The notes: generated from the letters alone by a model not told the origin. A DNA stretch of 64,000 nucleotides from a virus (IMGVR_UViG_2834631226_000004:1-64000); one strand, 5' to 3'; shown: positions 1 through 17,639, counted from the first letter of the stretch. Translations and numbers: made by a program.

Positions 1-288
1 ATGACGTCTGAAGTTACGCGCCTGCTCGCAGAAATTCGAGAGGATGTAGCAACGAGGAAGGCCGAAGTCTTAGCCAACCCCGTTGCCGCTGTATTCGAAG
101 CAACCACCCATAAGCACCGAACAGCCGAACAGATCGCTGCGCATCGCGATCTATACCGGCAAGCAAAGCGGCACGTCGTCGAAATCGACACATGGAATGC
201 CGCCAACACAGACAAACCCGCACGAACGTATCTGCCGCACATGCTGGCCTACCTCGGCGCGTTCTCCTATGTCGAAAAGGACACCTGA
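1..288 (+). CDS. Hypothetical protein (may be 5'-truncated by the window edge)
   Basis: 95-aa ORF whose TGA directly abuts the capsid ATG; no motif recognised. Confidence 0.55.
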   Translation: MTSEVTRLLAEIREDVATRKAEVLANPVAAVFEATTHKHRTAEQIAAHRDLYRQAKRHVVEIDTWNAANTDKPARTYLPHMLAYLGAFSYVEKDT

Positions 289-1386
289 ATGACTGACAAT
301 ATCGCTACCAAAATCGAGCAGCTTGGTTCTGCTTTCAACACCGCCACAACCGACCTGTCTGAGAGAATTTCCGGACTTGAAAAGAGCTTCGCCCGTATGG
401 ACGGCCACGCCAACGACAACTTCGCCACCGGCGAAAGCCTGGCAACTGCTCTGGTCAACACGCCTGCGTTCAAGGAGCTCAATGGCGGCGCCAATCGCGG
501 CCGCGCTTATGTCGAATCTGCCGCCATTACCTCTGGCAACACCACCGTCGGCACTGGTCGCTCTCAGGGCACGTCTCTGGTCCCCGCCGATCGACGCCCG
601 GGCATTGTCACTCCCGCCCAGCGCGTTCTCACCGTCCGCGACCTCATTGCGCCAGGCAAGACCACTGCGGGCTCTATCGAATTCGTGCAGGAAACTGGCT
701 TCACCAACAACGCGGCACCTGTCGCCGAGACTACGCAGAAGCCCTACTCGGACATCACCTTCGACCTCAAGACTGCATCGGTTCGGACCATTGCGCACCT
801 CTTCAAACTCTCCAAGCAGATGCTTGATGACGTCGTCGGGTTGGTCTCCTATCTGGATCTGCGCGGCACAACCGGCTTGAAGCTGGTCGAGGAGCAGCAG
901 CTGCTCTTTGGTAGCGGCACTGGCCAGAATATCCTTGGCCTTATCCCGCAGGCGACCGAATTCGACGACAGCCTGCGCCAGACAGGCGATACTCGCGTTG
1001 ACACCATTCGCAGAGCCATCCAGCAGGTTCGCCGCGCGGAGTACACCGCGACTGGCATTGTCATGAACCCGGACGACTTGGCCGAGCTTGAGCTCACCAA
1101 GGATGCTGGTGGTAACTACATCATCGTCGACCCAGTAGAGGGCGGACAGGGCCGCATCTGGCGCCTGCCCATCGTTGATACCACGGCGATGCCAGCAGGC
1201 CAGTTCCTCGTTGGCGCACTGGCTACGGCTGCGCAGATCTTCGATCGGCAGCAGGTCACGTTCGAACTCAGCACAGAGAACGACAAAGACTTTGAGCTCA
1301 ATATGGCGACGGCCCGGATCGAGGAGCGTCTTGCCCTTGCGGTCTATCGTCCTGAGTCTCTGGTCACCGGTGGCTTCGAAGCCTAA
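289..1386 (+). CDS. HK97-family major capsid protein (satellite copy)
   Basis: ETGFTNNAAPVAE, RTIAHLFK, R.EERLALAVYRPE motifs; visibly paralogous to 36596..37804 with a shorter N-terminal delta region. Confidence 0.92.
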   Translation: MTDNIATKIEQLGSAFNTATTDLSERISGLEKSFARMDGHANDNFATGESLATALVNTPAFKELNGGANRGRAYVESAAITSGNTTVGTGRSQGTSLVPADRRPGIVTPAQRVLTVRDLIAPGKTTAGSIEFVQETGFTNNAAPVAETTQKPYSDITFDLKTASVRTIAHLFKLSKQMLDDVVGLVSYLDLRGTTGLKLVEEQQLLFGSGTGQNILGLIPQATEFDDSLRQTGDTRVDTIRRAIQQVRRAEYTATGIVMNPDDLAELELTKDAGGNYIIVDPVEGGQGRIWRLPIVDTTAMPAGQFLVGALATAAQIFDRQQVTFELSTENDKDFELNMATARIEERLALAVYRPESLVTGGFEA

Positions 1387-1489
1387 GCGCCATCTACCTA
1401 GGTAGCGTGGGTGTGAGTGGCCACGCTACCAACGGCCTGCTGCTGAGCCCCGGCGGCAGGCCACCCTTTCCACATATAAGGACTAACCA

Positions 1490-1723
1490 ATGCCATCAGG
1501 CAAGATCATCAAGTGGATGACCGATCGCGGTTTCGGTTTCATCCAAGAAGACGGAGCGCGCGGTAGCGCCGGTGACTTCGTACACATCACCGCAATGCCA
1601 GATACTGAGGCACCACGTATTGGACAGCGCTTCGACTACGACCGCGTGACCGGCATGGATGGCCGCACCAAAGCGGTGAACGTCCGCGAGGTTACGACGT
1701 GGGGCGAGGCAGCGTACCTTTAG
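1490..1723 (+). CDS. Cold-shock domain protein
   Basis: GKIIKW..DRGFGFI (RNP1) and DFVHIT (RNP2), ending TKAVNV; RBS AAGGA upstream. Confidence 0.85.
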   Translation: MPSGKIIKWMTDRGFGFIQEDGARGSAGDFVHITAMPDTEAPRIGQRFDYDRVTGMDGRTKAVNVREVTTWGEAAYL

Positions 1724-2047
1724 GTGGCAGGTATGTGGCGCAGTAACAACCGCGCTAAGAGTGCCGATTGGCAACACCTCTATAAGCGCAAGCGCTGGCT
1801 CGACCTACGAGAACGGCAGTTGATGCAAGAGCCCCTGTGTCGGTTTTGCCTCGCAACCGAAGAGGTGACCGCCGCCGAGGTCGTCGACCACATCACGAAG
1901 CATGAGGGAAACGAAGACCTATTCTTCGACCCCGACAATCTTCAAAGCCTTTGTCGCCATCATCATGACAGTGCCAAGCAGGCAATGGAACGAGGGCGCA
2001 AGGTTTTCGCTTGCGGTGTGGACGGATACCCCATCGAGCTAGGCTAG
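1724..2047 (+). CDS. Packaging-associated HNH endonuclease (HK97 gp74-like)
   Basis: EPLCRFC..VVDHITKH..NLQSLC..HH..K..GVDGYP; paralogue of 42450..42770. Confidence 0.85.
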   Translation: MAGMWRSNNRAKSADWQHLYKRKRWLDLRERQLMQEPLCRFCLATEEVTAAEVVDHITKHEGNEDLFFDPDNLQSLCRHHHDSAKQAMERGRKVFACGVDGYPIELG

Positions 2048-2150
2048 GGGGTGGAATTGAAGTGACCGTTCGCTCAGCCACGGAGCGGCGCGGGAAGGCA
2101 CTTTTAATGCAAACACAGATTTTTGCCTCGCGCGTGCGCAAGCGCGCGCG
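2048..2150 (+). other. Putative cos packaging region of the satellite
   Basis: Immediately downstream of the HNH stop; 2106-2148 matches 42349-42391 (minus strand) at 42 of 43 nt. Confidence 0.7.
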
Positions 2151-2251
2151 TGAGAAAACATTGGATTTTTTCGCCTGATACGGGGCTTATCGAAACTCTG
2201 AAAGTCGCCTTTTTCAGGGACCGGCCGGGGTCATTCGCGTGCATATTACCC

Positions 2252-2389
2252 CTAGTTTTCGCTTGGGCTTTCCTCATCCTCGTCAGGGACCGTTTCCAGG
2301 TCTTTGCAAAGCGCCCTCGCCTGTTCTGCCAATGCGGCCAGCTGCGCCGTAATCTCTGCCAGCGGCAGGCCCTCAACCCGTTCTTCCAT
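2252..2389 (-). CDS. Small acidic protein, 45 aa (MEERVEGLPLAEITAQLAALAEQARALCKDLETVPDEDEESPSEN)
   Basis: Translated by hand (below the ORF-track cutoff); GGAGG upstream of the ATG; helical then acidic composition. Confidence 0.5.
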   Translation of the reverse strand: MEERVEGLPLAEITAQLAALAEQARALCKDLETVPDEDEESPSEN

Positions 2390-2447
2390 TGCATCCCTCC
2401 TGCATTTCGTCGGTGACGAACGCAAATTGGTGCAGCCTGGTTCCCTG

Positions 2448-3239
2448 CTAGATTTTCATGCGTTGCTGCGCGAGCTCCTCGTACAGGTTACAACGCTCCG
2501 CAATTTCTTGGTAGAGTCGGCTGTATATGCCAACATTGTGTATCGCAGCAGAGAGCACGCCTGGAGGCAACGTTTCAGGGACCAGTTCTGCCTCGAACCT
2601 TGCGTAGTCAAAAAGACAGGAACAGCGGGCATAAACCTCTAGGGCATCTATTAGGTGAGATTCCATCGTGCTTTTGGACGGCGATTGCCCGCCAGCTTTA
2701 TCTCGCGCTGTGCCGCGCAACCTCGCGCTCTGAACCTGAAGCTTCGACGCGAGTTTTGCGAAAACCATACCTGCGGCATGATCGCTCAACTCAACCATCT
2801 CCTTCAATACAGCAACCGGCGTGTCTGGAACTGAAGGGTACACGGGAAGCACAACGTCTTGTGGCAATCGATCTTCACCGCATCGGAGAAGCAGACCGTG
2901 GGTCAGCTGGGCGCACGTGGTCGAGTAGTCACATAAATTGCTCAAGGAAAGCGACAAAACGGAACGAGCTGCCTGCAATTTTGCGAGCCGCCTCTCGTCT
3001 TCTAGCGACCGCTCCTGCTCAATCTGATCTCTCACCGCCCTAACGCTGACATAGGCAGCCGCCACTGCCGCCAGACCGGTGACAAGGGTTGTATCGATCC
3101 AACCCAAGCGGCCTACTTTGCTCATCGCATCGCCAATCATAACCGGCCATGATCGCTCATCTAGCGCGATCTCGCGCCCGACAGCGAACAGCAGCAATCC
3201 AACAAGAAACCCAACAGCAGCGGCGACCGATTTTTTCAT
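2448..3239 (-). CDS. Hypothetical membrane-anchored protein
   Basis: 263-aa ORF with two N-terminal hydrophobic segments followed by a soluble helical region. Confidence 0.65.
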   Translation of the reverse strand: MKKSVAAAVGFLVGLLLFAVGREIALDERSWPVMIGDAMSKVGRLGWIDTTLVTGLAAVAAAYVSVRAVRDQIEQERSLEDERRLAKLQAARSVLSLSLSNLCDYSTTCAQLTHGLLLRCGEDRLPQDVVLPVYPSVPDTPVAVLKEMVELSDHAAGMVFAKLASKLQVQSARLRGTARDKAGGQSPSKSTMESHLIDALEVYARCSCLFDYARFEAELVPETLPPGVLSAAIHNVGIYSRLYQEIAERCNLYEELAQQRMKI

Positions 3240-3308
3240 CCTCCCATGAAGCGCTCAATCCTGAGTCGCGTCGATGCAACCCGCCTAAAATCCACAAGGA
3301 AAATCAAA

Positions 3309-3686
3309 ATGACCACAGCACAGCCCTTTGCCATCATCGAAGAAGACTTCGCCGACGGCACTTACAAATTCGCACTGACCTGGGACTTGGCGAGCGAATG
3401 GGAAAAAACCACGGACCGATCGCTCTATGCCACTCTGCTCCAAGCAATGCGCACTGGCATCGTCGGCCTGAACGACACGCGCGAGCTGGTACGCTTGGGT
3501 TTGATTGGCGGAGGCACGGCACCGAAAGAGGCGCTGAGGCTGGTGCGCACCTACGTTGAAGAACGTCCGGCCGCGGAGAACTTCGGTCTGGTGATCAATC
3601 TGGTGGACGCACTCTACCACGGCAAGGGTGTGGCCGATCCGGATGAAGGAAAGCCAGCCGAAAGCGCCGGCGACGTCGATGGCTAA
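3309..3686 (+). CDS. Tail assembly chaperone (GTA-gp10-like family)
   Basis: DGTYKFALTW..LASEWEK..RELVRLGLIGGG...ALRLVRTYVEERP pattern typical of alphaproteobacterial tail chaperones; upstream of the tape measure gene. Confidence 0.7.
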   Translation: MTTAQPFAIIEEDFADGTYKFALTWDLASEWEKTTDRSLYATLLQAMRTGIVGLNDTRELVRLGLIGGGTAPKEALRLVRTYVEERPAAENFGLVINLVDALYHGKGVADPDEGKPAESAGDVDG

Positions 3687-4140
3687 AGTCCAAGGCTGGG
3701 ACCGCCTAAAGCGCCGTCTCGAAAAGATACCCAAGGCCGTGCGCGAGCAGACGCAGCCGTCAATCACTTCCGCTGCCGATGATGTGGCGGAAGTGATCAG
3801 GGCTTTAGCCCCGAAAGACGATGGCGATTTGCGGGACAGCATCGAAGTCACCGGCGGCGGGCAGTCAACTCCGCCCTATAGTCTGCCTGGACGATCTATG
3901 GTCGTTCCAGAGAACGCCGCCATGATCACGGCGGGTAATTCCAAGGTCAGGTACGCGCACCTCATCGAGTTTGGCACCCGCGCGCATATCGCCGGCGGCC
4001 AGTTCGAAGGCGCAGAGATACCCGCCATACCCGCGCACCCATTCTTTTTTTCGGGTTTTCGCACAGCAAAGAAAAAGGCTGGCCAGAAAATCAAGCGCGC
4101 GATGTCGAAGGCGATAAGGAGCAAAAAGAATGGCAATTGA
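3679..4140 (+). CDS. HK97-gp10-like tail completion/neck protein
   Basis: LAPKDDGDLRDSI, YAHLIEFGT, PAHPFF motifs; paralogue of 33841..34335. Confidence 0.8.
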   Translation: MAKVQGWDRLKRRLEKIPKAVREQTQPSITSAADDVAEVIRALAPKDDGDLRDSIEVTGGGQSTPPYSLPGRSMVVPENAAMITAGNSKVRYAHLIEFGTRAHIAGGQFEGAEIPAIPAHPFFFSGFRTAKKKAGQKIKRAMSKAIRSKKNGN

Positions 4141-6472
4141 GTATGAACGACTTGCCGTCATGCTCGAGGCCCGCGTTGCGGATTTCGAGAAGAAAATTGC
4201 TGGCGCCACGCGCAATGCCGAGCGCAATTTCAAGCGGATCGAAACCACTTCTGCCAGAATGCAGGCCCGCCTGAATTCGACCTATTCGGGGATCGCCGCC
4301 AGTGCGGCGAAAGCCTTCGCCCTTATCGGTGGTGCCCAAGGCTTTCGCCAGCTATCGGACAGCGGAACGCGCATCACCAACTCCCTGAAGGTAGCGGGCC
4401 TCGCCGGCGAAGAACTTGAAGGCGTGTATCAGAAGCTTTTCACGGCGGCGCAGAAGAATGCCGCGCCGCTAGAAACGTTGGTGCAGCTCTACGGCCGCGT
4501 GTCATTGGTGCAAAAAGAGCTGGGCGTCTCGTCGGACGAGATTATCAGCCTGTCCAGCAACGTTGCACTTGCGCTGCGCGCGTCTGGCCAGTCCAGCCAA
4601 GAAGCATCCGGCGCGCTATTGCAGCTTTCGCAGGCCCTAGGCGCCGGCGTAGTTCGCGCTGAGGAATTCAATTCGATCCTCGAAGGTGCGCCTACTATCC
4701 TGCAGGCCGCTGCCGCTGGTATCAAGCAGGCCGAGGGCTCAGTGGCGAAACTTCGGCAGATCATGCTCGAAGGCAAGCTTTCCTCAAAGGCGTTCTTCGA
4801 CGGTATCAATGCTGGCGCACCAGTGCTTGAACAAAAGGTTGCCGGTGCCGTCCTGACGGTTGACCAGCGTCTTGAGAACCTTCGCACGGCCCTGACGAAC
4901 TCTGTCCGCAGGTTCAACGAATCCACGCAGGCAGCAAACACGTTCGGCTCGGCCATCGACAACATGGCGAACTTCGTCAACAGCGTCGACATGGATGGCC
5001 TGGCTTCCGATATTCAGTACGTTATCGAGAAGCTGAACGCTGGTGCGAAAGCAGCTCAGGACTTCGCCGAATGGGTAGGAAAGGCGAGCGGCCTTCAGAA
5101 CATTGGTCAAGGTGCTATTAGCGCGTTAGACAGCGATGGCGATGGCAAGCTATCAGTTCTCGGTGGCGCGCTGACAGTCAATTCAACCGTTAAAGCCAGC
5201 GACAAGCTCGTCGACAACACCCAGAAGCGGCTAGACCTCGAAAAGCAGATTGCTGAGATCAAGGCCAATCCGGCCAACGTTCTCGGCCAGGCTGAAATCA
5301 GGCAGCTTGAGGGGCAGATCAAGGCCCTACAAGAAGCGCAGACCAGAACCGCGTCCAGCATCATTCAAGACGTGCTGAATGACAAGCCGCTGAAATATCC
5401 CACCAGTGCGCCCTCTATTGTGGGAGGCGGCGGAGAGACCAAAACCGTCAACGGCAAGAAATTCACGCCGATCGACATCACGGACAAGCAGTACCAGGTC
5501 ACAGCCGACAAAGACGGCAAATCCAGCAGGAAGCGTGCTGATGAGTATGCCCGCGAGGTTGAGCAGATCACGAAGCGAACCGCGGCTCTGAACGCTGAGA
5601 CGGCAGCGCAGGCTGGTCTTAATCCCCTCCTCAATGACTACGGGCATTCCATCGAGTTCGCCCGCGCCAAACAGGAACTCCTAACCGCTGCCCAAGAGGC
5701 GGGCGTAAAGATCACGCCTGAACTTACGGCCAGTATCGAGGATCTAGCAGCAGGCTACGCGAACGCTGTCGTCGAGTCCGAGCGGCTTTCCGAAAAGCAG
5801 GATGAGATCCGCCAGCGCGCTGAAGAGGCGATGGAAACCGCCAAGGATGTTACGCGAGGCATGATTGACGGCTTCATCGAGGGCGCCAGTGCGGCAGACA
5901 TTTTGGCCGACAGCCTGAAGAAGATTGGCAACGCCCTTATCAACGACGTCTTGAACAACATCTTCAAGATCAACAACGCCGGCGGCGGTGGAGGCGGCCT
6001 GTTCAGTCTGTTCAGCGGCCTGTTTAGTGGTGGCAAGAGCAGCTTTCCTTCGGCTCCTGGCGGCCTTTATTCTGAAGGCGGATACACCGGCGACGGCGGC
6101 AAGTACCAGCCTGCCGGGCTCGTGCATAAAGGTGAGTATGTCTTCGACAAGGCTGCGGTCAAAGCTGCGGGCGGTCCTGCCGCACTGGAAGCAATGCGCC
6201 GCAATCTAAAAGGCTACGCCAACGGCGGCTACGTCGGCACGATGCCTTCGGTGCCGGCGCTGCGCGTGCCATCCATACCGGATATGAAATCCATCGCTGG
6301 TGGCGGTGTGGGCGGCGCGGTTAACGTGAATTTCTCTCCCGTTTATAACGTGCAGGGCACCGGCCCCGAGATCGCACAGCTTCGTGCGCAAATGGCCAAG
6401 GACAAAGCAGAAATACCGCTTAGAGTGGAAGCGGCAGTTAGAGACGCTCGGAAAAGGAACGTGAAACTATGA
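4130..6472 (+). CDS. Tape measure protein (satellite copy), 780 aa
   Basis: Tape-measure domain (ALLQLSQALGAG..RAEEFNSILE) and C-terminal GGYTGDGGKYQPAGLVHKGE..GYANGG..RVEAAVRDARKRNVKL shared with 29547..31907. Confidence 0.9.
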   Translation: MAIEYERLAVMLEARVADFEKKIAGATRNAERNFKRIETTSARMQARLNSTYSGIAASAAKAFALIGGAQGFRQLSDSGTRITNSLKVAGLAGEELEGVYQKLFTAAQKNAAPLETLVQLYGRVSLVQKELGVSSDEIISLSSNVALALRASGQSSQEASGALLQLSQALGAGVVRAEEFNSILEGAPTILQAAAAGIKQAEGSVAKLRQIMLEGKLSSKAFFDGINAGAPVLEQKVAGAVLTVDQRLENLRTALTNSVRRFNESTQAANTFGSAIDNMANFVNSVDMDGLASDIQYVIEKLNAGAKAAQDFAEWVGKASGLQNIGQGAISALDSDGDGKLSVLGGALTVNSTVKASDKLVDNTQKRLDLEKQIAEIKANPANVLGQAEIRQLEGQIKALQEAQTRTASSIIQDVLNDKPLKYPTSAPSIVGGGGETKTVNGKKFTPIDITDKQYQVTADKDGKSSRKRADEYAREVEQITKRTAALNAETAAQAGLNPLLNDYGHSIEFARAKQELLTAAQEAGVKITPELTASIEDLAAGYANAVVESERLSEKQDEIRQRAEEAMETAKDVTRGMIDGFIEGASAADILADSLKKIGNALINDVLNNIFKINNAGGGGGGLFSLFSGLFSGGKSSFPSAPGGLYSEGGYTGDGGKYQPAGLVHKGEYVFDKAAVKAAGGPAALEAMRRNLKGYANGGYVGTMPSVPALRVPSIPDMKSIAGGGVGGAVNVNFSPVYNVQGTGPEIAQLRAQMAKDKAEIPLRVEAAVRDARKRNVKL

Positions 6473-6759
6473 TTGACGAATACAACAGACGACTTTTGAC
6501 GGTTGAGGGAGAAATGTTCGCCCTCAGAAACGCGACGCATCTTATCGCATCGATTTTGCGCGAAACATTGCCTGATCAGGGCGTGATATTCGATGAGTTT
6601 CTGGAAACGGCAATAAGCTCCTACCGCAACGAGCTGCCATCTGATGAAAGAACGACCGTGTATCTTGAGGCTGCAATAAAGGCCACACGCGGCCTAATGG
6701 GCGCCCCAAGTGTGACGCCGACTCTCTCCGTGATCGAGGGCGGCAAAAAGGAAGAATGA
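6469..6759 (+). CDS. Hypothetical protein
   Basis: 96 aa, ATGA-coupled to the tape measure gene; ends LSVIEGGKKEE. Confidence 0.65.
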   Translation: MIDEYNRRLLTVEGEMFALRNATHLIASILRETLPDQGVIFDEFLETAISSYRNELPSDERTTVYLEAAIKATRGLMGAPSVTPTLSVIEGGKKEE

Positions 6760-6762
6760 GCC

Positions 6763-7356
6763 TTGGGGCAGCTGAAATGCGGGTGTCAGGTCCGCGCAGA
6801 AGCGAAACGTGAAGCTGTGACGGCAGAGCTTCAGAAACTTGTTGATGACCGATTGATCTCGCAAATCTTCTCCACGCCCTTAGGGCGTGGATTTTCTAGG
6901 CGAGTTTTCGCTTCGTCGGATTGGCCGGATTATGTGCTGAAAATGCCACTGAACAGCGATGGCTCAAACGCACGGGAATGGAACAACTGGACCATTTGCA
7001 AGGACGGCAGTCTAAGCAAATGGCTGGCGCCTTGCGTTGCTTATTGCCCAGACCAGGATCTCTTGCTGATGGGGAAAACAAAACCGATTCCTCGCCACTT
7101 CTGGCCCCAGTTCATTCCGGCCTTCTTTGGTGACGACCACAAAGGAAACTTTGGTTTCTTCCGGGGAATATTTGTATGTCACGACTATAGTGAGCTCGAT
7201 CTTACTGGCTTTGGTTGGCGGCAAGCACCATGGCGTGGACGACGTGACGGCCTCTCTAAAAGGTGGCGCGTTGAAATGCATCAGCCAAAAATTGAAGTCT
7301 ATGAGACTTACTTTGACAACTACGCTCGTGCAGTTCGGGAAAGCGGGATTGCCTAA
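6763..7356 (+). CDS. Minimal protein-kinase-like fold protein
   Basis: LGRGFSRRVF (Gly loop), YVLK (beta3 Lys), AREW (alphaC Glu), DDHKGNFG (catalytic loop), VCHDY (DFG-like). Confidence 0.6.
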   Translation: MGQLKCGCQVRAEAKREAVTAELQKLVDDRLISQIFSTPLGRGFSRRVFASSDWPDYVLKMPLNSDGSNAREWNNWTICKDGSLSKWLAPCVAYCPDQDLLLMGKTKPIPRHFWPQFIPAFFGDDHKGNFGFFRGIFVCHDYSELDLTGFGWRQAPWRGRRDGLSKRWRVEMHQPKIEVYETYFDNYARAVRESGIA

Positions 7357-7579
7357 AGCGTCGCCCCACTCCACCGGTAAAGCGCCTCGCTGAAAGGTAG
7401 GCGCAGCAGTGATTCTGCCGCAACACCCCATCCGCAAGCGGATGACTGTCCTAGGCAATAGAACGCGCCAACGTGACTAGATTTTTTTGCGGATTTTTGA
7501 CCGTTAACAGCATCTCTTCCAGCGAAGAAGCTGCTAAGCTGTATCACGAAAAACGGACTAAGTCAACCGATTGTTGATA

Positions 7580-7607
7580 TTGACGGCGCCGTCAAGTTGA
7601 CCATATT
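7580..7607 (+). promoter_or_regulatory. Sigma70-like promoter overlapping a perfect 16-bp palindrome
   Basis: TTGACG-N16-CATATT; TTGACGGCGCCGTCAA (7580-7595) is a perfect palindrome; the predicted +1 falls at the start of the structured RNA. Confidence 0.5.
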
Positions 7608-7612
7608 CGAAG

Positions 7613-7697
7613 TGTACGCGAGACGCGGTAATTAGCCAAGGCCGTCCTCCCCGCAAGGGTGTAGAGCATTTCTGGGTGTTTGGCGCCCAGGCGTACA
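7613..7697 (+). ncRNA. Candidate four-helix (cloverleaf-like) small RNA
   Basis: Hand-folded: TGTACGC/GCGTACA closing stem, GACG/CGTC arm, CTC-CCC-GCAA-GGG-GAG arm, CTGGGTG/CGCCCAG arm stacked on the closing stem; flanked by a promoter and terminator. Confidence 0.55.
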
Positions 7698-7698
7698 A

Positions 7699-7726
7699 AG
7701 ACCCCGCTCCGGCGGGGTTTACTTTA
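7699..7726. terminator. Probable bidirectional intrinsic terminator
   Basis: GACCCCGC-TCCG-GCGGGGTT hairpin with T-rich flanks on both strands, between the ncRNA and the stop codon of 7719..8111. Confidence 0.65.
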
Positions 7727-8111
7727 TCCGGCGAGCCCTTTTCGCGCGCCGTCGATACTCACTCGCGTGGACGGGGTGAAACGTGCTCACCCATATTTCA
7801 TTTTTCAACTGAACTCCTTTGAGAACCAGCCGATAAAGCCGGTTCTCGATCTGGGAGAAGAACTGGATGCAGTTCGGCTCTCGGTCGGTGTATGCTTCCC
7901 CATATTCCAGAATGGTGGGAATGTGGGCAAACGCCATTTCGGCCGTCCGGTGCTTAAATCTGATCTTCTTTACATAATCGGGACTGATCCAGATCGAAAC
8001 AGTGGACACGCCGATCAAAACCGAAAGCGTAGGGTTCAGCCCACATATACGCACCGGCCTATCGAATGCTCCTATTGCAAGAAGGTGCCATTCATCTTCA
8101 TTTAAGCTCAA
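7719..8111 (-). CDS. Putative PBECR (phage-Barnase-EndoU-Colicin E5/D-RelE-like) ribonuclease
   Basis: 130 aa; KIRFKH..IPTILEYGE..LYRLVLK..EIWVSTFH..YRRR pattern resembles PBECR/RelE-like folds. Recognised by eye only. Confidence 0.5.
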   Translation of the reverse strand: MSLNEDEWHLLAIGAFDRPVRICGLNPTLSVLIGVSTVSIWISPDYVKKIRFKHRTAEMAFAHIPTILEYGEAYTDREPNCIQFFSQIENRLYRLVLKGVQLKNEIWVSTFHPVHASEYRRRAKRARRIK

Positions 8112-8301
8112 TATTATCCCGCCAAAGCCAGCCGTGATTATGGATACGCGTGAGCCGGAATAATAATACAGGAATCAGGCCGGCAACGTGCAATGGAATC
8201 ACAATCCACAAAGCTTTGGCAACTACCGCGGGATACTGCCAGTTTGTTCGCGTTAGGTTCTTTTATGTGGAGCGAGAGCCTAGCTGTCCGGCCACCAATG
8301 A

Positions 8302-8613
8302 CTAATTATCTCGAAACGGGCCGCCGGTGAACCGAAACAGTGTTTCGCTATAGGGTAGTCGCAGCAGGATTTTACCATTCTCAGCTATCGCGCCGAGGGC
8401 TGCAGCTCGACAAAGAAGGCTTACTCCGCCTTGTTGCCTGTTGCACATGGCATCTGGGCTATCAATCAATCGAACGTTGGCCAGGCCAGCAACCACTATT
8501 GTTGTGCCTTCGGGAAGCGCGCCGATCGGCTGAACAACAATAATCCTAACGCCACCCAGCCATACGCCTATTGATGCGATAAACACTACCGCGAGCGCCA
8601 ACAGCAATTTCAT
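8302..8613 (-). CDS. Hypothetical exported/membrane protein
   Basis: N-terminal signal or TM segment (MKLLLALAVVFIASIGVWLGG); two Cys. Confidence 0.65.
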   Translation of the reverse strand: MKLLLALAVVFIASIGVWLGGVRIIVVQPIGALPEGTTIVVAGLANVRLIDSPDAMCNRQQGGVSLLCRAAALGAIAENGKILLRLPYSETLFRFTGGPFRDN

Positions 8614-8663
8614 TCTTGCCCCCCAGACCTATGGGAGCAAGATGGTTTAGCCTGCCAAGATGG

Positions 8664-8900
8664 TCAAGGCTTAATGGTCACCCCGTAGCCTTGGGCAGTA
8701 TCTCCGGTAGCGATGAACATGACGCCGGCATCTTCAAGGGCCGACTGGATATCGCGCAAAGTCCTGTCGTACGGCGTGGATTTTTCACTTTCGAAGTTTG
8801 CCAGCGTGGCTCGGCCCACTGCTGACGCCTTGGATAAGTCATCTTGCGACCAGTTAATTAGGGCACGCGCTGCCCGGCATTGTGACGCCGTAATAGACAT
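8664..8900 (-). CDS. XRE-family helix-turn-helix repressor
   Basis: QCRAARALINWSQDDLSKASAVGRATLANFE..L..IQSALEDAGVMF; divergent from 9007. Confidence 0.85.
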   Translation of the reverse strand: MSITASQCRAARALINWSQDDLSKASAVGRATLANFESEKSTPYDRTLRDIQSALEDAGVMFIATGDTAQGYGVTIKP

Positions 8901-9006
8901 TTTGTATAACTCTATCATTTTTGTGTTGACTTACGACCAACTCGATGTATTTTGTATCGTGTTATAGCGAAACAATCGCTTCGCAGCAACCGAGGAGAAC
9001 GTTGAA

Positions 9007-9450
9007 ATGACGCATGCCAGCAGAAGACACGAACCTGCGCGGAGCAATGCCAGAGAGCAGTTGCCGCGCGCGCTTGTCGGAAGAAGACGACCAACCTTCC
9101 TTGAGCATGATATTGCCGCCGCTCCCCAGGCGGCACACTACTACAGACCATCCCAAGGCCAGAACCGCTGCGCCATGGAGATTGATGGTGAGCGCGTTTT
9201 GGTGGATGTCAGCACGTTCACAAACATGAAGAACGAACGGGCTGTCGTCCTGCGCCATGATGGCAGCATCGGTATTGAGCTGGTCTCTACTGAAGACGAC
9301 TACCCTCGCCCTTACGGAACAAGATCTGCTTTCGGCCAGAGCTATAGAAGCCCTCACGGCGGAACCATGCGCGATTGTTTAACGGTCGTTGGTAAGGTTA
9401 TCGATCCTGAAATCTTTCATGGCGTCACGATCGACGGAGAGCCGTCATGA
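9007..9450 (+). CDS. Hypothetical protein (first gene of the divergent early operon)
   Basis: GAGGAG RBS; divergent from the XRE gene; ATGA-coupled to the next gene. Confidence 0.6.
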   Translation: MTHASRRHEPARSNAREQLPRALVGRRRPTFLEHDIAAAPQAAHYYRPSQGQNRCAMEIDGERVLVDVSTFTNMKNERAVVLRHDGSIGIELVSTEDDYPRPYGTRSAFGQSYRSPHGGTMRDCLTVVGKVIDPEIFHGVTIDGEPS

Positions 9451-9635
9451 CGTGGCAGCAAACCTACCCTGAAGGCTCGACCGTATTGATCGGTCGCGAC
9501 AGTTACACGGCCAAGCACAATCCCCACTTTCCCGGCATAGATCTATATCAGGGGCGCTTGCGCGTCATGACGGTTTGCCCCGATTATTTGCCGCAGGTCG
9601 CGACTGGAGTGATGATCGAGGGAGAAGCACGATGA
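9447..9635 (+). CDS. Hypothetical protein
   Basis: 62 aa with ATGA overlaps on both sides. Confidence 0.6.
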   Translation: MTWQQTYPEGSTVLIGRDSYTAKHNPHFPGIDLYQGRLRVMTVCPDYLPQVATGVMIEGEAR

Positions 9636-9997
9636 CCGGCGCTGCCCGAGAAGCTTCCGAAAGATCATTCCTGCGAAGGATGACTTCGCTATACGCAGAA
9701 CTTGATACCGTCTGGAGCCGGCACGGTGAATTGCCTGACGAAGTTAGTGACGCCATCGTCGACGCTGCAGGGCTGCTGTGTGACGCGATTATCAATGCCC
9801 CGATCAAAAGCGAGGAGGACATTGCTCGCAAGCTTCGGTTCGCCGCGGACCTCGTGTCCAGCAAAGACGGGGTAATGTTAGCCGAGCGCCCAGCCGTCGA
9901 GCGAGCGCTGCACGACCTGATAGCATTTCGGGAGGCAGAACTGCGCGTTGACGAGCGCCTCCTCGATCGACTTCAGTTAGCATCCGCACACCACTAG
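9632..9997 (+). CDS. Hypothetical protein
   Basis: GGGAG RBS, ATGA overlap; helical AP..S..D...KLR pattern common in rhizobial phage proteins. Confidence 0.6.
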   Translation: MTGAAREASERSFLRRMTSLYAELDTVWSRHGELPDEVSDAIVDAAGLLCDAIINAPIKSEEDIARKLRFAADLVSSKDGVMLAERPAVERALHDLIAFREAELRVDERLLDRLQLASAHH

Positions 9998-10174
9998 TTC
10001 CCTGTGCCAGCCTTGCATTCGGGCTGGCCAATTTGCCGCAGCGCGCCTTCGGGTTGCGCGCGGTCTTTTATTCCAGTTGCCGATACCCCCGGCCTAAGAG
10101 GCCTCACCAGCTGCACCACGCGCTCCACCACTGCGCGGGCCGGGGGTGGTAATCAATCGACCGAGGAGACCTTC

Positions 10175-10372
10175 ATGATTTCAGCGATCCTATGCGTGAC
10201 AATAGCGCTGGTTGTCGCAGCCTCAATCTTGATGATGATATTGATGGTTGCCGACGAGCACCCGAACGGCGCAACGGTTAAGTCAAGCATGTGGACAATG
10301 ATGGGAGCGGCGACGGTATTAGGCGGCCTATTGATTGGAATGATGCTTGTGCAGGCCGCGAGCGCTATCTGA
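10175..10372 (+). CDS. Small two-TM membrane protein (65 aa)
   Basis: GAGGAG RBS; two strongly hydrophobic segments; followed by a terminator at ~10400-10430. Confidence 0.6.
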   Translation: MISAILCVTIALVVAASILMMILMVADEHPNGATVKSSMWTMMGAATVLGGLLIGMMLVQAASAI

Positions 10373-10523
10373 TTTCCACGTCACCACGCGCCTACGATGC
10401 CCGCCAGAATCACCAACTGGCGGGTTTTCGCTATCTGGACGACATATCCACAACGGAAAACTCGCCGGCCAAGTTATGGCAAGCGGCGAAAAAATCAAAA
10501 TTATGCAATGAAAACAAGGGTTG

Positions 10524-10614
10524 TGGCGGAGAGGATGGGATTCGAACCCACGATACGCTTTTGACGTATACTCCCTTAGCAGGGGAGCGCCTTCGACCAC
10601 TCGGCCACCTCTCC
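10524..10614 (-). tRNA. tRNA-Ser(GCT), host gene with encoded CCA
   Basis: Reverse complement GGAGAGGTGGCCGAGTGGTCGAAGGCGCTCCCCTGCTAAGGGAG...GGGTTCGAATCCCATCCTCTCCGCCA; long variable arm; GCT anticodon. Confidence 0.97.
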
Positions 10615-10624
10615 GGTAGAGGGG

Positions 10625-10653
10625 TTACTAACCGCAAAGCCCTTGTCCTGCAA
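10625..10653 (-). promoter_or_regulatory. Promoter of tRNA-Ser
   Basis: TTGCAG-N17-TAGTAA followed by a C-rich discriminator just upstream of the tRNA. Confidence 0.6.
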
Positions 10654-10898
10654 GGGCTTTTTTTCATGTCTATTCGTTTGTTCTCCTATTTTCTTCGATA
10701 CGTGAAAATGCGGCTTGTGACGTGAACAAACAACGATTTACGCCAAAAAACATCCCATATTTAGACCATAGGCGTTTTCCATATGTGCTTATTTCGTTCA
10801 CACTACCTAAAAACGGACCATAATTACCGTACCGACGTGTATATATAATGAGAGACGGTTTTTGGCATGAATCCTGTTTGCGACATCGCGAATCAAAC

Positions 10899-10932
10899 AA
10901 AAAACCCCGCCGTGGTTAGTGGCGGGGTTTTT
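10899..10932. terminator. Intrinsic terminator closing the leftward prophage operon
   Basis: AAAAAACCCCGCC-loop-GGCGGGGTTTTT. Confidence 0.8.
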
Positions 10933-10935
10933 GTG

Positions 10936-11175
10936 TTATAGCGGCGGCGGTTCCCATTTCGGATCCATGATGGCAGCCGCGATCTTTTCTGGCTCATCTT
11001 CATTCAAGTTGCAGCCGGAAATGTCCTCCAAATAGCGGCGGGCAACATCGGCGCATCGTTCACGCTCGGCGAGGATGGCTGCCGCAAATACCTTGCGAGC
11101 ATGGCTGTCTGTTATTCCCGCGTTGGCGCAGATCGATGCCGCTACCGCAGTGATGTCATCTGGAATACCTCTCAC
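10936..11175 (-). CDS. Hypothetical phage protein
   Basis: GTG start with GGAGG RBS overlapping the upstream stop; AAILAERERCA..A motif common in phage proteins. Confidence 0.6.
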   Translation of the reverse strand: MRGIPDDITAVAASICANAGITDSHARKVFAAAILAERERCADVARRYLEDISGCNLNEDEPEKIAAAIMDPKWEPPPL

Positions 11176-11924
11176 GCCGCATCCTCCATGCGCCAATCCA
11201 AGAAGATACCCAACTGGCGATGAAGATCGACAATATCACCAATGTTGTGAATCTCGATATCCGGGCGACCACACCCCGCCTCGCTCTCGTGGCTGCCCGC
11301 GATGCCACCACGACCGACAAGTCGCCAAACCACACCACCCAGCTTGCGCACCTCATCCGCTTCATTCGGGAAACGGCAGTCATCGACGACAACACGGCCG
11401 CCAAAGGCAAGCACGCCGTCTACGCGTGAGCGCCAGAGATTGGTCCAGAAGTCCTCTCCCATGCACTTGCGTCCCCACTCAGTGCCGAGCGTCTGCATGG
11501 CATGCCTTGGCGTGTATCCAGATAGCATTGCAAGGTCGGTCTCTTTGTGAGCGCCCTCGATGTGACCTTCGCTCAGACCGATCGCCCGCAGCATGTCTTT
11601 CAACGGGCCTGCGAACTTCACCAGTTGGTAGCCGTGCTTCTCGACCAGGTACTTGCTGGCCGTGCTCTTACCGCTGCCGGCAAGGCCGGTGAGCGCAATG
11701 ACGGGCGGCAAGATAGATGTGCTCGCCTTTCCGATTGCCGCGCCGAGTGCGCGCAGCTCGATAGGAACGTTATCATTCGCCGGTACGGCTGTGAGGCAGC
11801 CTGTGTCTTTGGATGTCAGGGTCTCGCCGAGAGTAAAAGACGCACGGAAATCCACCAAAGCTGAAGCATAGGCAGCGCGGTTCTTTTCAGCGAGTTCGTC
11901 GAGCTTGTCCAGAATGTTGGTCAT
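11172..11924 (-). CDS. Deoxynucleoside monophosphate kinase (T4 gp1-like) with N-terminal extension
   Basis: IALTGLAGSGKST P-loop, FAGPLK, TPRHAMQTLGTEWGR, VVVDDCRFPNEA..GG.VW.L, HESE. Confidence 0.85.
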   Translation of the reverse strand: MTNILDKLDELAEKNRAAYASALVDFRASFTLGETLTSKDTGCLTAVPANDNVPIELRALGAAIGKASTSILPPVIALTGLAGSGKSTASKYLVEKHGYQLVKFAGPLKDMLRAIGLSEGHIEGAHKETDLAMLSGYTPRHAMQTLGTEWGRKCMGEDFWTNLWRSRVDGVLAFGGRVVVDDCRFPNEADEVRKLGGVVWRLVGRGGIAGSHESEAGCGRPDIEIHNIGDIVDLHRQLGIFLDWRMEDAA

Positions 11925-12199
11925 AACGTTTCCTCGATCTTCTTCTCTTCCTCGACTTTCGGCTTCACCACCGGCCTGAACCGGCGCAGCGCGAACGGTG
12001 GATCCTCATCGCCGAACTGCGGACACACGCCACGGTTCACGCCCGCCAGCCTGATGCCAGCGTAGTCACCGCCGAGATACGAGCGGCACATGCCGACCCA
12101 AGTTGCTGTGTAGGTCTCCCCGGCACGAATGCCGAGGTATTGCTCTGGAAGGGTAGTGTCGTCGATGCAGATTACTTCGTCGCCGGGTTTGATGGTCAT
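11921..12199 (-). CDS. Hypothetical phage protein
   Basis: 92 aa; KPGDEVICID start; overlapping stop/start coupling. Confidence 0.6.
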   Translation of the reverse strand: MTIKPGDEVICIDDTTLPEQYLGIRAGETYTATWVGMCRSYLGGDYAGIRLAGVNRGVCPQFGDEDPPFALRRFRPVVKPKVEEEKKIEETL

Positions 12200-12438
12200 G
12201 GTGCCAACGCTCCGATGATTTTGATTGCCTCACGTAGGTCAGCGGCATACTGCCGATCGCGCTTAGCCCCGTTGTGGTGGTCGAGGAACATGCGAACCGC
12301 GAAGGTGTTGTGGTTGCCCTGCCCGGCGTTGAATAGGTCCATCTGCGGCTTCAAGGCGTCGGCCACAGCATCGTTGTTTGCGGCACATGCCTCGTCCTCG
12401 GCGAGTCGTTTTCTTAGCCGCTCGATAAGGTCGGTCAC
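12196..12438 (-). CDS. Hypothetical phage protein
   Basis: MTDLIERLR start typical of phage ORFs; coupled to neighbours. Confidence 0.6.
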   Translation of the reverse strand: MTDLIERLRKRLAEDEACAANNDAVADALKPQMDLFNAGQGNHNTFAVRMFLDHHNGAKRDRQYAADLREAIKIIGALAP

Positions 12439-13163
12439 GCAGCCCTCCCCGCCATAAGCGCATCAAACGTCGCCAGGAATTCCAACTCCGCTTCCTCCGG
12501 TGACCAGTACCGCATCTTCACGCCCAGCTCTTTGCCGGCGTACCGCGCATGCCACGGCATTTCACGCAGGTTGACCAGCTCGTCCGCAATGATTCGGTTG
12601 TCAGCGTCATGCACTTCGCGCGGCAGCTCCCGGTCCAACTGAAATCGCGCCGCGATAGCCAGCCAGTTGTCCTGCTCAATCGCCCGGTAGTTGATAAGGT
12701 ACGGCTTGAGCGGTCGCGGAATGTCCACGCAGTATGCTTCAGGGGCATCGTGGAGAAGGCCAGCCAAAGCCACCTCCGGCGCGTGCTTGGCTGCAAGATG
12801 ACGGGCAATCAGGACAGAATGTTCGGCGACGCTGTAGAACTTGATGCAGTGACCAGCGTATCGGCATTGCAGGCCGAGCGAATGCGCGATGTCTTCGATG
12901 TGGACTTCGTGCGGTCTCGGAGACATCGGCCAGTATTTGCGGCCGGTGAACGTTTGCATGAAATCGCCGGTGCGGGGTGGCTCGGCTGGTGTGTTGCGGG
13001 TTAGGCCGATGTATTGTCCGTTGTCCTGGGACTGAGGACGGTTGTCGTTGGCGGCAACTGGGGTACACCTTGTGCGCTCTTCGCGCAGCGCCACTGCAGC
13101 CTTAAAGGTGGCGATCTTTTTATCTGCGATCTCTCTAGCGTCTATCACTGCAGCGTATGGCAT
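12435..13163 (-). CDS. HD-domain 5'-deoxynucleotidase-like protein (YfbR family)
   Basis: IEDIAHSL..CRYAGH..FYSVAEHS..LLHDAPEAY..DIPRPLK..D. Confidence 0.85.
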   Translation of the reverse strand: MPYAAVIDAREIADKKIATFKAAVALREERTRCTPVAANDNRPQSQDNGQYIGLTRNTPAEPPRTGDFMQTFTGRKYWPMSPRPHEVHIEDIAHSLGLQCRYAGHCIKFYSVAEHSVLIARHLAAKHAPEVALAGLLHDAPEAYCVDIPRPLKPYLINYRAIEQDNWLAIAARFQLDRELPREVHDADNRIIADELVNLREMPWHARYAGKELGVKMRYWSPEEAELEFLATFDALMAGRAA

Positions 13164-13591
13164 CAAAACGCCTTCCCACCAGCCATAAGCCGGTTTTCGA
13201 TTTTGTGGTCAGGGCGGTTGGCGTTGAATGCCATCTTCTCGACGACGGCGCCGCCGAGGTCATAGCCGAGGAATGCCGCCAGATCGCCGATCCGGATCAT
13301 GGCGTCGGCCAGCTCCACCTCAGCCATAGGTCGGTGCGGCAGCTTGTCGTCCATCAGCACTTTACCGGGCCTGGACTTGCGATAGCCCTCCATCGCTTCG
13401 CTGATCTCGCTGTGAATCAGGCAAAGCATCTCAGGCACGTTGCGGTCCAGCGCCCTGCCTGTGGCGAGGTCAGTGTACCAGCCTGCTCTACGGCTTGCTG
13501 CGTGGCAGTCGGCTGCAAACAGGTTGATCGCTGCGGCGTGGTGGAATTCCACCTCCGCAGCGATTTTTAAAGTCACGACGTTGTCACTCAT
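13163..13591 (-). CDS. MazG-like NTP pyrophosphohydrolase
   Basis: LCLIHSEISEAMEGYRK..EVELADAMIRIGDLA..KMAFNANR. Confidence 0.8.
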   Translation of the reverse strand: MSDNVVTLKIAAEVEFHHAAAINLFAADCHAASRRAGWYTDLATGRALDRNVPEMLCLIHSEISEAMEGYRKSRPGKVLMDDKLPHRPMAEVELADAMIRIGDLAAFLGYDLGGAVVEKMAFNANRPDHKIENRLMAGGKAF

Positions 13592-13798
13592 TCTTGTCTC
13601 CTCAGTGGCGGTGGTTGACCGCCAGTTGGTGGCTGGCGGCTGGTTGGGGATTGCTGGGGAAGTCGCTGTATAAATGCTAAAAAAAACCCGAATTTGCCGG
13701 TTGTTTCGGTGGTTATCCCCCATTGGCAATTGACCTTCGGCCCGTAGGGAGTCCTTATTGCCATTGTGGTGCCAGCGAATCTTTCACTGGAGCACCAA

Positions 13799-13948
13799 AT
13801 GAAGACCTTCCTTAAGTTCAGGCACGGTAAAACCGAAGGTGAAGCGAACAACACTCTCGGAATGTTGCTGCTAACGATCATTGCCGTAACCTACAGGCTT
13901 GCACCGTTCATCGCGCTGGGCGCTGGCGGATACTGGCATGTTCGCTAG
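13799..13948 (+). CDS. Small membrane protein, antisense to the operon
   Basis: GGAG RBS; 49 aa with one hydrophobic segment. Confidence 0.45.
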   Translation: MKTFLKFRHGKTEGEANNTLGMLLLTIIAVTYRLAPFIALGAGGYWHVR

Positions 13949-13952
13949 GGCG

Positions 13953-15188: not shown

Positions 15189-15269
15189 GCAGTCTCCTCG
15201 ATGTGGTGGTGAAGGCCGCTTGGTGGGCGGCCTGATGTCACTCTGACAAAGCCGGTGGGTTGGTGGGGG

Positions 15270-15608
15270 TCACTTCATCTCGTCGTAATCGAGGAAGTAT
15301 GATTTGCCGCAGACGTCACAGCGGTAGCGCTCGCCATCCATGCCGCCGCCGACTTCCTTCATGTTTGGACAGTCGCGAGTTGATGGATCGGCTATGCCGC
15401 AAGGCCGTGGACCTGAAGCCTGCTGCTCTGGTGCGCCCTTAAGACCACGCATCAGGAAAGCTGTTCGCTGTGCGGTCTCGTAAAAGAATTGCCATTCCTC
15501 TTGCGTCAGAGGGCGATTGAACCCAATCACGCACTCGGAGCTTTCGGGCTTGTTCCATCCGCGTTCGGCCAAAAGGTCTAGCTTTTTAAGAGACACGACG
15601 TTGCTCAT
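15270..15608 (-). CDS. Hypothetical protein with C-terminal Zn-ribbon
   Basis: CPNM..YRCDVCGKSYFLD. Confidence 0.55.
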   Translation of the reverse strand: MSNVVSLKKLDLLAERGWNKPESSECVIGFNRPLTQEEWQFFYETAQRTAFLMRGLKGAPEQQASGPRPCGIADPSTRDCPNMKEVGGGMDGERYRCDVCGKSYFLDYDEMK

Positions 15609-15645
15609 CTGCTTCTTCCGCTGTGCTGTGGTTACTTGGTGGGGG

Positions 15646-15888
15646 TCAGGCGACGAACTGCGCGTCGAGCTTTCGGAGCGTCTGCTTTGCCGCGACCGCT
15701 TGCAGATCACCGCCGACGCGGAAATCCATGGCGCTGGTAATCCGCTGGCGAACCTGTTCGCGCGACGGCGTGCCGTTCATGAAGCCGATGCTGTGGTTGA
15801 AAACTTCGTTCTCAATCGTTTCGACCTCGACGCAGAAATCGATTGCCGGGTCTGGATGGTGGTCAAATTTTCCGAGTTTCTCTGTCAT
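15646..15888 (-). CDS. Hypothetical protein
   Basis: 80-aa ORF with AGGG RBS inside the operon. Confidence 0.55.
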   Translation of the reverse strand: MTEKLGKFDHHPDPAIDFCVEVETIENEVFNHSIGFMNGTPSREQVRQRITSAMDFRVGGDLQAVAAKQTLRKLDAQFVA

Positions 15889-15912
15889 GTTCCCTATCCT
15901 TTGTCTGAAGCC

Positions 15913-16584: not shown

Positions 16585-16664
16585 GATTATCCCCTCTTTC
16601 TGGCGACCGTGCGCCGATGTGGTGGTCTCGGTTGGTTGCCGAGCGGCTGGTGAGGCCGACAATC

Positions 16665-16695: not shown

Positions 16696-16719
16696 TTTAC
16701 GGTCGCCTCAGAATCCCGA

Positions 16720-16753: not shown

Positions 16754-16756
16754 ATT

Positions 16757-16960: not shown

Positions 16961-16964
16961 TCCT

Positions 16965-17637: not shown

Positions 17638-17639
17638 GT

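Follow-up and report, generated by a model that had tools for sequence, protein, structure and literature searches.

The window analysed here is a 64,000-nucleotide stretch of viral DNA, the first 64 kb of a 76,362-bp "provirus" record in IMG/VR (IMGVR_UViG_2834631226_000004). Its left end belongs to an integrative phage satellite, which is separated by a tRNA-Ser gene from an HK97-like prophage with a cohesive-end (cos) site. We propose tentatively that this satellite represents an undescribed alphaproteobacterial family that would build hybrid virions, supplying its own capsid shell, tape measure protein (TMP), tail assembly chaperone and neck protein and taking the motor, portal, protease, tube and tip from its helper. 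In this proposal the two elements would travel and fire together, since the satellite carries exact copies of the helper's cos and early promoter/operator and sits in the other end of the tRNA gene that the helper uses.

Position 1 of the window is a record boundary and not a biological one. The exact satellite capsid protein is also encoded on a 544-kb contig of NCBI assembly GCA_002008205.1, an Agrobacterium/Rhizobium-type genome. The locus taken from that contig (L003) is identical to the window over all of the 11,386 shared bases and gives 9,712 further bases upstream (window coordinates are L003 coordinates minus 9,712). The integrase and the attachment-site (att) duplicate of the tRNA-Ser 3' end, both predicted by the initial annotation, which had been made from the window alone, were found in this upstream DNA, together with AlpA and a replication module. 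Terminase, portal and tube genes, which the same annotation had named as signs of a complete or decayed prophage, were looked for in L003 upstream of position 1, and there are none. The satellite thus extends from L003 position 2814 to window position 10537, i.e., 17.4 kb bounded by a 15-nt direct repeat, and two host porin genes lie upstream, outside attL. We regard it as probably complete and intact, to judge by its sequence. The IMG/VR provirus, scored as 100% complete, is itself a composite of half a satellite, a tRNA gene and a prophage, and starts at a gene boundary in mid-satellite; automated provirus calling had fused two elements and truncated one of them.

From attL onwards, the satellite encodes a tyrosine integrase, AlpA, small open reading frames (ORFs), a 269-aa putative initiator, a ThsB-TIR/SLATT cassette, a 265-aa hallmark protein, orf164 and orf100. 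These are followed by the major capsid protein (MCP), a cold-shock-domain (CSD)-like protein, an HNH endonuclease, cos, a cargo gene, the chaperone, an HK97-gp10-like protein, the TMP, accessory genes, an Xre-type switch and attR. The capsid, HNH, chaperone, gp10-like and tape measure genes listed earlier were each recovered at their positions by PHROG and Pfam scans, and the cos-like block by nucleotide comparison. The same scans revealed no terminase, portal, protease, tube, tip or lysis families, either in positions 1-10523 or in the 7 kb of element DNA upstream, and the absence originally claimed for the visible 10.5 kb therefore extends to the whole 17.4 kb. The only ORFs of the element longer than 250 aa are those of the integrase, initiator, SLATT protein, hallmark, MCP, a 263-aa gene and TMP, and the unassigned ORFs are all too small to encode a portal protein or TerL. 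This gene content suggests that the satellite depends on a helper for its motor, portal, protease, tube and tip. The P4 markers Psu, Sid, Delta and Alpha did not turn up in the general Pfam/PHROG scans of the element ORFs, an absence that is not proof in such scans.

Most of the satellite virion genes had been said to possess a recognisable counterpart in the adjacent prophage, and blastp matched the capsid protein, the HNH protein, the gp10-like protein and the C-terminal half of the TMP. The two MCPs are 56% identical (64% for the genes at the DNA level), and the N-terminal (delta/scaffold) arm is about 40 residues shorter than that of the prophage MCP in all seven aligned satellite copies. 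The satellite HNH protein is 54% identical (2.6e-39) to the prophage HNH protein that precedes cos and terS, and the gp10-like proteins are 28% identical. The satellite TMP matches the prophage TMP (786 aa, TMP_2 type) over residues 447-780, at 40% identity, and its N-terminal half is unrelated. The chaperone has no blastp counterpart in the prophage; it is 73% and 43% identical, respectively, to those of two related elements, L009 from Agrobacterium rubi and L011. The gp10-like gene lies between the chaperone and TMP genes, in the same order in L009 and L011. A PHROG "tail tube" label on the chaperone ORF most likely echoes the PF11836 description ("Phage tail tube protein, GTA-gp10"); with the label so explained, the earlier statement that there is no tube gene stands. 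A frameshift fusion of the chaperone and gp10-like ORFs was rejected, as the latter lies in the +1 frame relative to the chaperone, and not in the -1 frame.

In HK97, cos lies between HNH and terS, as in this prophage. The roughly 125 bp that follow the satellite HNH gene align with the prophage HNH-terS gap. The core of this block (positions 2106-2148) is identical to prophage positions 42349-42391 at 42 of 43 nt (97.7%), and a 21-mer taken from it occurs only at these two sites in the window (0 expected). The G/C-rich segment GGAGCGGCGCGGG upstream of the core is a candidate nick site. The cos core is also kept in L009, which is without HNH.

When the satellite was compared with the prophage by sensitive blastn, the top-ranked identities were non-coding, namely the cos core and a promoter/operator (AAATCTTGACAAATTTGTAAAA) of 22-27 nt that is 100% identical between the two elements. 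The satellite has two copies, one before the AlpA operon and the other before the hallmark/capsid operon; these two promoters lie at L003 4050-4150 and 8106-8206. Three copies in the prophage precede operons that start with an HTH-like gene, that include Gp157 and a methylase, and that start with a trypsin-like peptidase. The palindrome ACAAATTTGT, which lies over the -35 box, occurs six times in both elements together (0.04 expected); a fourth prophage copy, at record position 67867, consists of this palindrome alone. In four other host genomes (19 Mb), a 17-mer of the motif occurs once, inside the related satellite L012. Transcription coupled to the helper through the common promoter/operator would be one consequence of this arrangement. 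In the P2/P4 system, satellite and helper regulators can switch on each other's operons, and there too the operons of satellite and helper have common regulatory sequences. The present element has, however, no sequence or gene homology to P4, and control of its promoter by the helper is suggested by the shared DNA. The exact sharing of cos and promoter/operator also provides a simple, sequence-only way of pairing satellites with helpers.

The satellite and the prophage use one tRNA-Ser gene from its two ends: the last 15 nt serve the satellite, and the first 42 nt plus 3 upstream serve the prophage. The prophage is bounded by two copies of a 45-bp segment from the 5' half of tRNA-Ser, and the far copy (positions 7089-7133 of locus L042) overlaps the stop codon of the prophage integrase, which lies at the far end of the record. 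The two tyrosine integrases are unrelated to each other by blastp. After both integrations, the 5' half and the 3' tip of the expressed tRNA adjoin mobile DNA, and its promoter must be at the prophage end. The assignment of the neighbour as helper, made originally from the matching genes, is strengthened by the common cos and promoter/operator and by the use of one tRNA gene, in addition to the homologous capsid, HNH and TMP genes; the neighbouring prophage is the likely helper of the satellite.

Several observations weigh against the proposed partnership. The common promoter could stem from shared ancestry or recombination and not from helper control. The presumed nick-site flank differs between the satellite (GGAGCGGCGCGGG) and the helper (GGACCGGCGGGG), so that the helper enzyme may fail to cut there. 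In the genome that harbours L011 (G001), the satellite shares with the resident HNH paralogue no more than the HNH coding sequence and a loosely similar motif downstream of it. No second capsid gene was found when the A. rubi genome was searched with the helper MCP, and a resident helper is therefore not universal. One of the proteins encoded by orf164, orf100 or the 265-aa gene could be an unrecognised packaging protein. Finally, the public sequencing runs, all of them stored as contigs, contain at most about 0.17 of the sampled words, and excision, cos ends and expression are not readable from them.

The A. rubi genome and the slightly different cos flanks would also suit a satellite of some other, unseen helper, the neighbour being a relative at the same tRNA hot spot. 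So would a sister prophage with an identical capsid protein, which differs in its HNH/terS region and is without the exact cos 21-mer. We consider such a helper quite unlikely: the cos core and five promoter/operator copies are common to these two elements, the promoter motif is absent from the four other genomes searched except within L012, and homologues of the capsid, HNH and TMP C-terminus all occur in this one prophage, within a 76-kb record.

Relatives of the satellite capsid protein are encoded in elements of like layout that end at tRNA-Phe, -Lys, -Asn and -Pro genes. In L011, located at a different tRNA, the genes for integrase, AlpA, orf164, orf100, MCP, HNH, chaperone, gp10-like protein, TMP, HTH regulator and a 147-aa ORF (orf147) are collinear with those of the satellite, at 33-76% aa identity. 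The HNH-less A. rubi element has kept the conserved trio orf164-orf100-MCP and the tail module along with its cos core. The Devosia element (L010) combines the trio with a TMP_3 tape measure, and L012, from Ferranicluibacter, combines it with other cargo. A minimal element (L026) is reduced to integrase, xis and a DUF3987 protein for replication, plus the trio in the form orf164-like/117 aa/MCP. Six IMG/VR contigs carry an orf164 gene at 76-98% identity, and three of them (L031, L033 and L034) are 16.7-18.3 kb long, with the core at 82-95% nucleotide identity. The satellite family is found in Rhizobiaceae and Devosia.

Substitutions relative to these elements at codon positions 1/2/3 number 5/2/78 for MCP, 55/27/208 for TMP, 19/13/52 for the chaperone, 23/18/72 for the gp10-like gene and 10/3/36 for HNH. 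This third-position bias in every structural gene shows that the genes are maintained and are not wreckage. The result bears on the alternative that the locus is an immobile remnant of a prophage from which decay or deletion has removed terminase, portal, protease and most tail genes. The genes are indeed a subset of those of an HK97-like siphovirus, in an unusual order, with HNH after the capsid gene and the gp10-like gene between chaperone and TMP. Both att copies and the integrase are nevertheless intact, as are all ORFs, which are under purifying selection, and there are regulatory and replication modules like those of phage-inducible chromosomal islands (PICIs). Elements with the reduced gene set, at 33-93% identity, also lie at five different tRNA genes and are present on several IMG/VR contigs of 17-18 kb. 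A remnant is therefore very improbable, and because the upstream DNA holds an integrase and an att duplicate and no terminase, portal or tube, our overall assessment took this alternative as refuted.

A second pair of elements was found in Devosia elaeis, where the L010 satellite resides together with a prophage on contig C79 of genome G003. When the MCP of the present prophage was used as query, the Devosia satellite MCP was 59% identical and the C79 capsid gene 82% identical to it. Over the full 535 aa of the Devosia satellite TMP, identity to the C79 TMP (open frame of about 755 aa) is 51%, and patches of 85-93% nucleotide identity between the two point to recent exchange. Tails built on the shorter satellite TMP would be predicted to be shorter.

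On the explanation that we favour and consider probable, with a mechanism inferred wholly from sequence, induction of, or infection by, a helper of the prophage's type would fire both satellite operons through the common promoter/operator, and the satellite would excise and replicate from an iteron origin. HNH proteins have an established role in HK97-type packaging, and here the satellite HNH protein, with helper TerS and TerL, would cut the satellite concatemer at the copied cos. The short-armed MCP, acting alone or as a Ccm-like subset of capsomers, would combine with the portal and protease of the helper into heads that fit 17 kb and not 66 kb. The ratio of the two genomes (17.4 kb/66 kb) is 0.27, and a smaller shell is geometrically plausible, which is arithmetic and not evidence. 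The satellite chaperone, TMP and gp10-like protein would replace their counterparts in tails otherwise built by the helper, and the conserved C-terminal half of the TMP would dock on the helper tail tip. The initial annotation's view that the element provides head shell and tail ruler itself is likewise suggested by gene content, and packaging, capsid resizing and hybrid tails are all to be read as predictions from it.

The same genes could serve a genuine satellite whose MCP and TMP mainly poison head and tail assembly of the helper, as a form of host defence. Interference by satellites through capsid homologues and tail assembly is documented (PMC5052747, PMC8569155, PMC11364771, PMC12987554), and a defence-like ThsB-TIR/SLATT cassette is aboard. 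Moreover, the satellite TMP has about the length of the helper TMP (780 versus 786 aa), so that no new tail length is specified. Set against this, the chaperone, a TMP with its own N-terminal half and the neck protein have been kept together in three lineages, which looks more like an assembly pathway than like one poison subunit, and the same genes are incorporated into virions of the PICI-like elements (PLEs) of Vibrio (PMC12987554). We judge interference as the main role to be unlikely, and interference and use are not mutually exclusive.

Each part of the proposed hybrid virion has a published precedent (the Ccm protein of the staphylococcal pathogenicity island (SaPI) SaPIbov5, the chimeric tails of PLEs, and the EPIPs of Mycolicibacterium aichiense). 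Like SaPIbov5, the satellite has a helper-type cos copy, lacks its own terminase, encodes a paralogue of the helper capsid protein with the HK97 fold and would, by analogy, use HNH-dependent helper packaging (PMC5052747, PMC8569155); in that system, Ccm occupies the pentameric capsomers of T=4 procapsids (PMC8569155). Unlike SaPIbov5, it has its own HNH gene, an MCP of 56% identity with a shortened arm, and a tail-core module, and it resides in an alphaproteobacterial host and has no sequence relationship to SaPIs.

In PLE11, the TMP, chaperone and baseplate hub build chimeric tails, and putative tmp genes occur in PLE-like elements and some capsid-forming PICIs (cf-PICIs) (PMC12987554, including its Extended Data Fig. 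10). The present satellite resembles PLEs in having a partial tail pathway (TMP and chaperone, of low to moderate identity to those of the helper), with other tail parts presumably from the helper. It differs in that its helper is a temperate cos phage of siphovirus type whereas the PLE helper is the lytic myovirus ICP1, in that a gp10-like neck protein takes the place of the hub as third component, with no Rta homologue identified, and in that PLEs use the helper capsid protein whereas this element has its own. By analogy, the element would work like a mixture of a cos-type SaPI (helper cos and capsid paralogue) and a PLE (partial tail pathway).

The EPIPs are small satellites with MCP and TMP and without most virion genes, as here, but they have a serine integrase, TerS, adaptor, stopper and scaffold (PMC12822802), whereas in the present element the integrase is of the tyrosine type, HNH accompanies cos, a gp10-like protein and a chaperone are encoded, and TerS, adaptor and scaffold are not recognisable. 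With cf-PICIs it shares a backbone of integrase, AlpA and replication genes, behind which come head genes of HK97 type, HNH and MCP among them (10.1101/2022.09.08.507074). In contrast to them, it has no TerS, TerL, portal, protease or head-tail adaptors and yet has tail genes (chaperone, gp10-like, TMP). Being without the first four of these and having tail genes, it fails the cf-PICI definition. The integrase, AlpA, iteron replication module and Xre-type regulator with divergent genes are as in classical PICIs and SaPIs, whose definition (no structural genes, with capsids remodelled by small proteins other than capsid proteins) it fails because it encodes MCP and TMP. The earlier remark that the gene combination fits none of the known classes neatly accordingly stands for P4, PICIs, cf-PICIs and SaPIbov5. 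Since PLEs with TMP and chaperone (PMC12987554) and EPIPs with MCP and TMP (PMC12822802) are now on record, the combination has more precedent than that annotation supposed.

What is new is the combination of an MCP without portal or protease, an own HNH gene beside a copied cos, and the chaperone/gp10-like/TMP module. Also new are the alphaproteobacterial family with the trio and hallmark, the copied promoter/operator and the occupation of one tRNA gene from both sides. The usual classification divides satellites into thieves of whole virions (P4, PICIs, PLEs) and makers of heads that steal only the tails (cf-PICIs); this family, with one head gene, no motor and a tail core, lies between. It forms a graded series, from the MCP-only trio to elements with HNH, cos and the tail-core module, alongside a cf-PICI-like neighbouring lineage with the hallmark gene, from which the gain or loss of virion modules by satellites might be traced. 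If the interpretation is true, PLE-type chimeric tails and Ccm-type paralogues would extend to temperate siphoviruses of plant-associated Alphaproteobacteria, a group of which there is no mention in the SatelliteFinder survey.

Table 1. Features of the satellite, the tRNA-Ser gene and the candidate helper prophage (window coordinates unless L003 is indicated)
Feature	Coordinates	Strand	Remarks
Satellite attL	L003 2799-2813, outside window		duplicate of attR 15-mer; ~100 bp upstream of integrase
Satellite tyrosine integrase	L003 2916-4088, outside window
ThsB-type TIR gene overlapping SLATT-domain gene	L003 6629-8003, outside window	opposite strand	PADLOC ThsB1, 1.6e-53
265-aa hallmark protein	L003 8201-8998, outside window		0.7-1.5 kb upstream of position 1
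orf100, small helical protein	1..288	+	directly upstream of MCP; first ATG at L003 9698, 15 nt before window
MCP, 365 aa, HK97 fold	289..1386	+	phrog_10 2.6e-73; PF05065
77-aa protein, weak CSD match	1490..1723	+	phrog_729 1.2e-4
HNH endonuclease	1724..2047	+	phrog_2323 6e-32
cos-like block	2048..2175	.	directly 3' of HNH stop codon
263-aa cargo gene	2448..3239	-	~870-bp insertion between cos and tail module
Tail assembly chaperone	3246..3686	+	PF11836 Phage_TAC_11, GTA-gp10 type, 1.5e-12
HK97-gp10-like neck/tail-completion protein	3628..4140	+	phrog_5 2.9e-23; PF04883
TMP, 780 aa	4130..6472	+	PF20155 TMP_3 N-terminus
Two genes 3' of TMP (96-aa ORF, 197-aa ORF)	6469..7356	+	197-aa ORF: phrog_4301
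103-aa protein	8302..8613	-	phrog_37309
Xre/C-protein-like HTH_3 regulator	8664..8918	-	PF01381 3.3e-5; PADLOC "control protein" 2.7e-10
Three small genes (147, 62, ~121-140 aa)	9007..9997	+	toward attR
Satellite attR core GTGGCGGAGAGGATG	10523..10537	.	15-mer, 3' end of tRNA-Ser
tRNA-Ser(GCU)	10524..10614	-	attachment gene of both elements
Prophage attL core	10573..10617	.	tRNA-Ser 5' half + 3 nt
Candidate helper, HK97-like cos prophage, ~66 kb	10618..64000	-	continues to record position ~76,356
Prophage promoter/operator copy AAATCTTGACAAATTTGTAAAAACAGT	16672..16698	-	upstream of trypsin-like peptidase operon
Prophage TMP	29547-31907		786 aa, TMP_2 type
Prophage tube	32965-33396
Prophage gp10-like	33841-34335
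Prophage MCP	36596-37804
Prophage S49 protease	37817-38935
Prophage portal	38945-40174
Prophage TerL	40199-41860
Prophage TerS	41875-42330		Hendrixvirinae type
Prophage cos core	42349..42391	-	in 119-bp gap between HNH and terS
Prophage HNH	42450-42770
Prophage promoter/operator copy	56164..56187	-	upstream of DUF7448, Gp157, DNA methylase

The coordinates of the features are collected in Table 1. The prophage also encodes connectors, gp17 tail completion and chaperones. It further carries TIGR-TasA guides, which were compared with the satellite by parsing each of ten units into two 9-nt spacers. Under this crude target model, there was one match with two or fewer mismatches, where shuffled spacers gave an expectation of 0.53, and k-mer pairs were not significant, so that targeting of the satellite by these guides was not confirmed. 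The VIPR guide system was set aside as a model for these guides, since it is a different system and not applicable.

The 265-aa hallmark protein contains two conserved AANDN motifs, which resemble the start of the alphaproteobacterial ssrA tag, and, with 78 homologue clusters, retains about 70% identity among Rhizobiaceae elements that are otherwise unrelated. Its predicted model is mostly disordered (pLDDT 60), with a small C-terminal helical domain, and in the ESM Atlas it matched unnamed clusters only. One hallmark-bearing element, in Ensifer sp. M14 (GCA_003355565.1; L007 6401-17220), encodes an integrase, HTH_17, an AAA_25 replication protein, the hallmark, a 118-aa ORF, TerL, HNH, MCP, an S78 protease, a 177-aa ORF and a portal protein in a compact cf-PICI-like layout, showing that capsid-forming satellites with this gene exist in Rhizobiaceae. 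Another carries a protease and a TMP with tail-tip-sized genes.

The AlphaFold model of orf164 has a pLDDT of 94. Foldseek searches of PDB and BFVD gave no match at E<=0.001, and VIA-align gave CvkR/MerR-type matches only, with Z scores of 6.0 or lower. Profile similarity to the helper TerS was looked for and not found, nor was there a sequence match in PDB. The model would fit a MerR-like DNA-binding protein, for which the roles of regulator and of packaging-specificity factor are both conceivable. The second member of the trio, orf100, shows 2/1/8 substitutions by codon position relative to L031 and had no family match in the PHROG/Pfam scans. The CSD-like 77-aa protein is kept in relatives (75% identical in L009; substitutions 3/4/26).

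The 263-aa minus-strand ORF is a real gene, since substitutions in its own frame are most frequent at third, then first, then second codon positions (29/17/10 versus L009). It is missing from L031-L034, where cos adjoins the chaperone gene, and the insertion is peculiar to this lineage; its product had no family match in the scans. Plus-strand ORFs at 2123-3043 were rejected as genes in favour of this ORF. The ThsB-TIR/SLATT cassette, located between the replication and morphogenesis modules, is likely defence cargo of the satellite. In relatives, cargo follows the tail module: NA37 nucleoid-associated and RelA/SpoT-domain proteins in L009 (15266-17361) and an HD/dGTPase-like protein in L012 (14001-15446), all probable defence or accessory genes.

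The 269-aa ORF has weak HTH and phage O-like matches (E values of 0.018 and 0.064) and contains five iterons of about 20 nt each; the array is a putative origin and the ORF product a putative initiator. Contigs of a close relative were found in wastewater oligo-dT RNA-seq, one of 6.9 kb covering window positions 1-2407, the capsid-HNH-cos stretch (~97%), and others covering window positions 4304-6105, part of the TMP gene (~91%), which hints at expression of the relative, DNA carry-over being also conceivable.

AlpA is encoded after the integrase, upstream of the window, both genes lying within L003 2814-4514. At the other end of the element, the Xre-type regulator is divergent from the genes at 9007-9997 and is kept in L010-L012 (tblastn), and the 147-aa ORF is 40% identical in L011. 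In the excised circle, the three plus-strand genes beside this regulator would read over attP into the integrase and AlpA genes, and the switch at the tRNA-proximal end could drive the excision genes only during or after circularisation.

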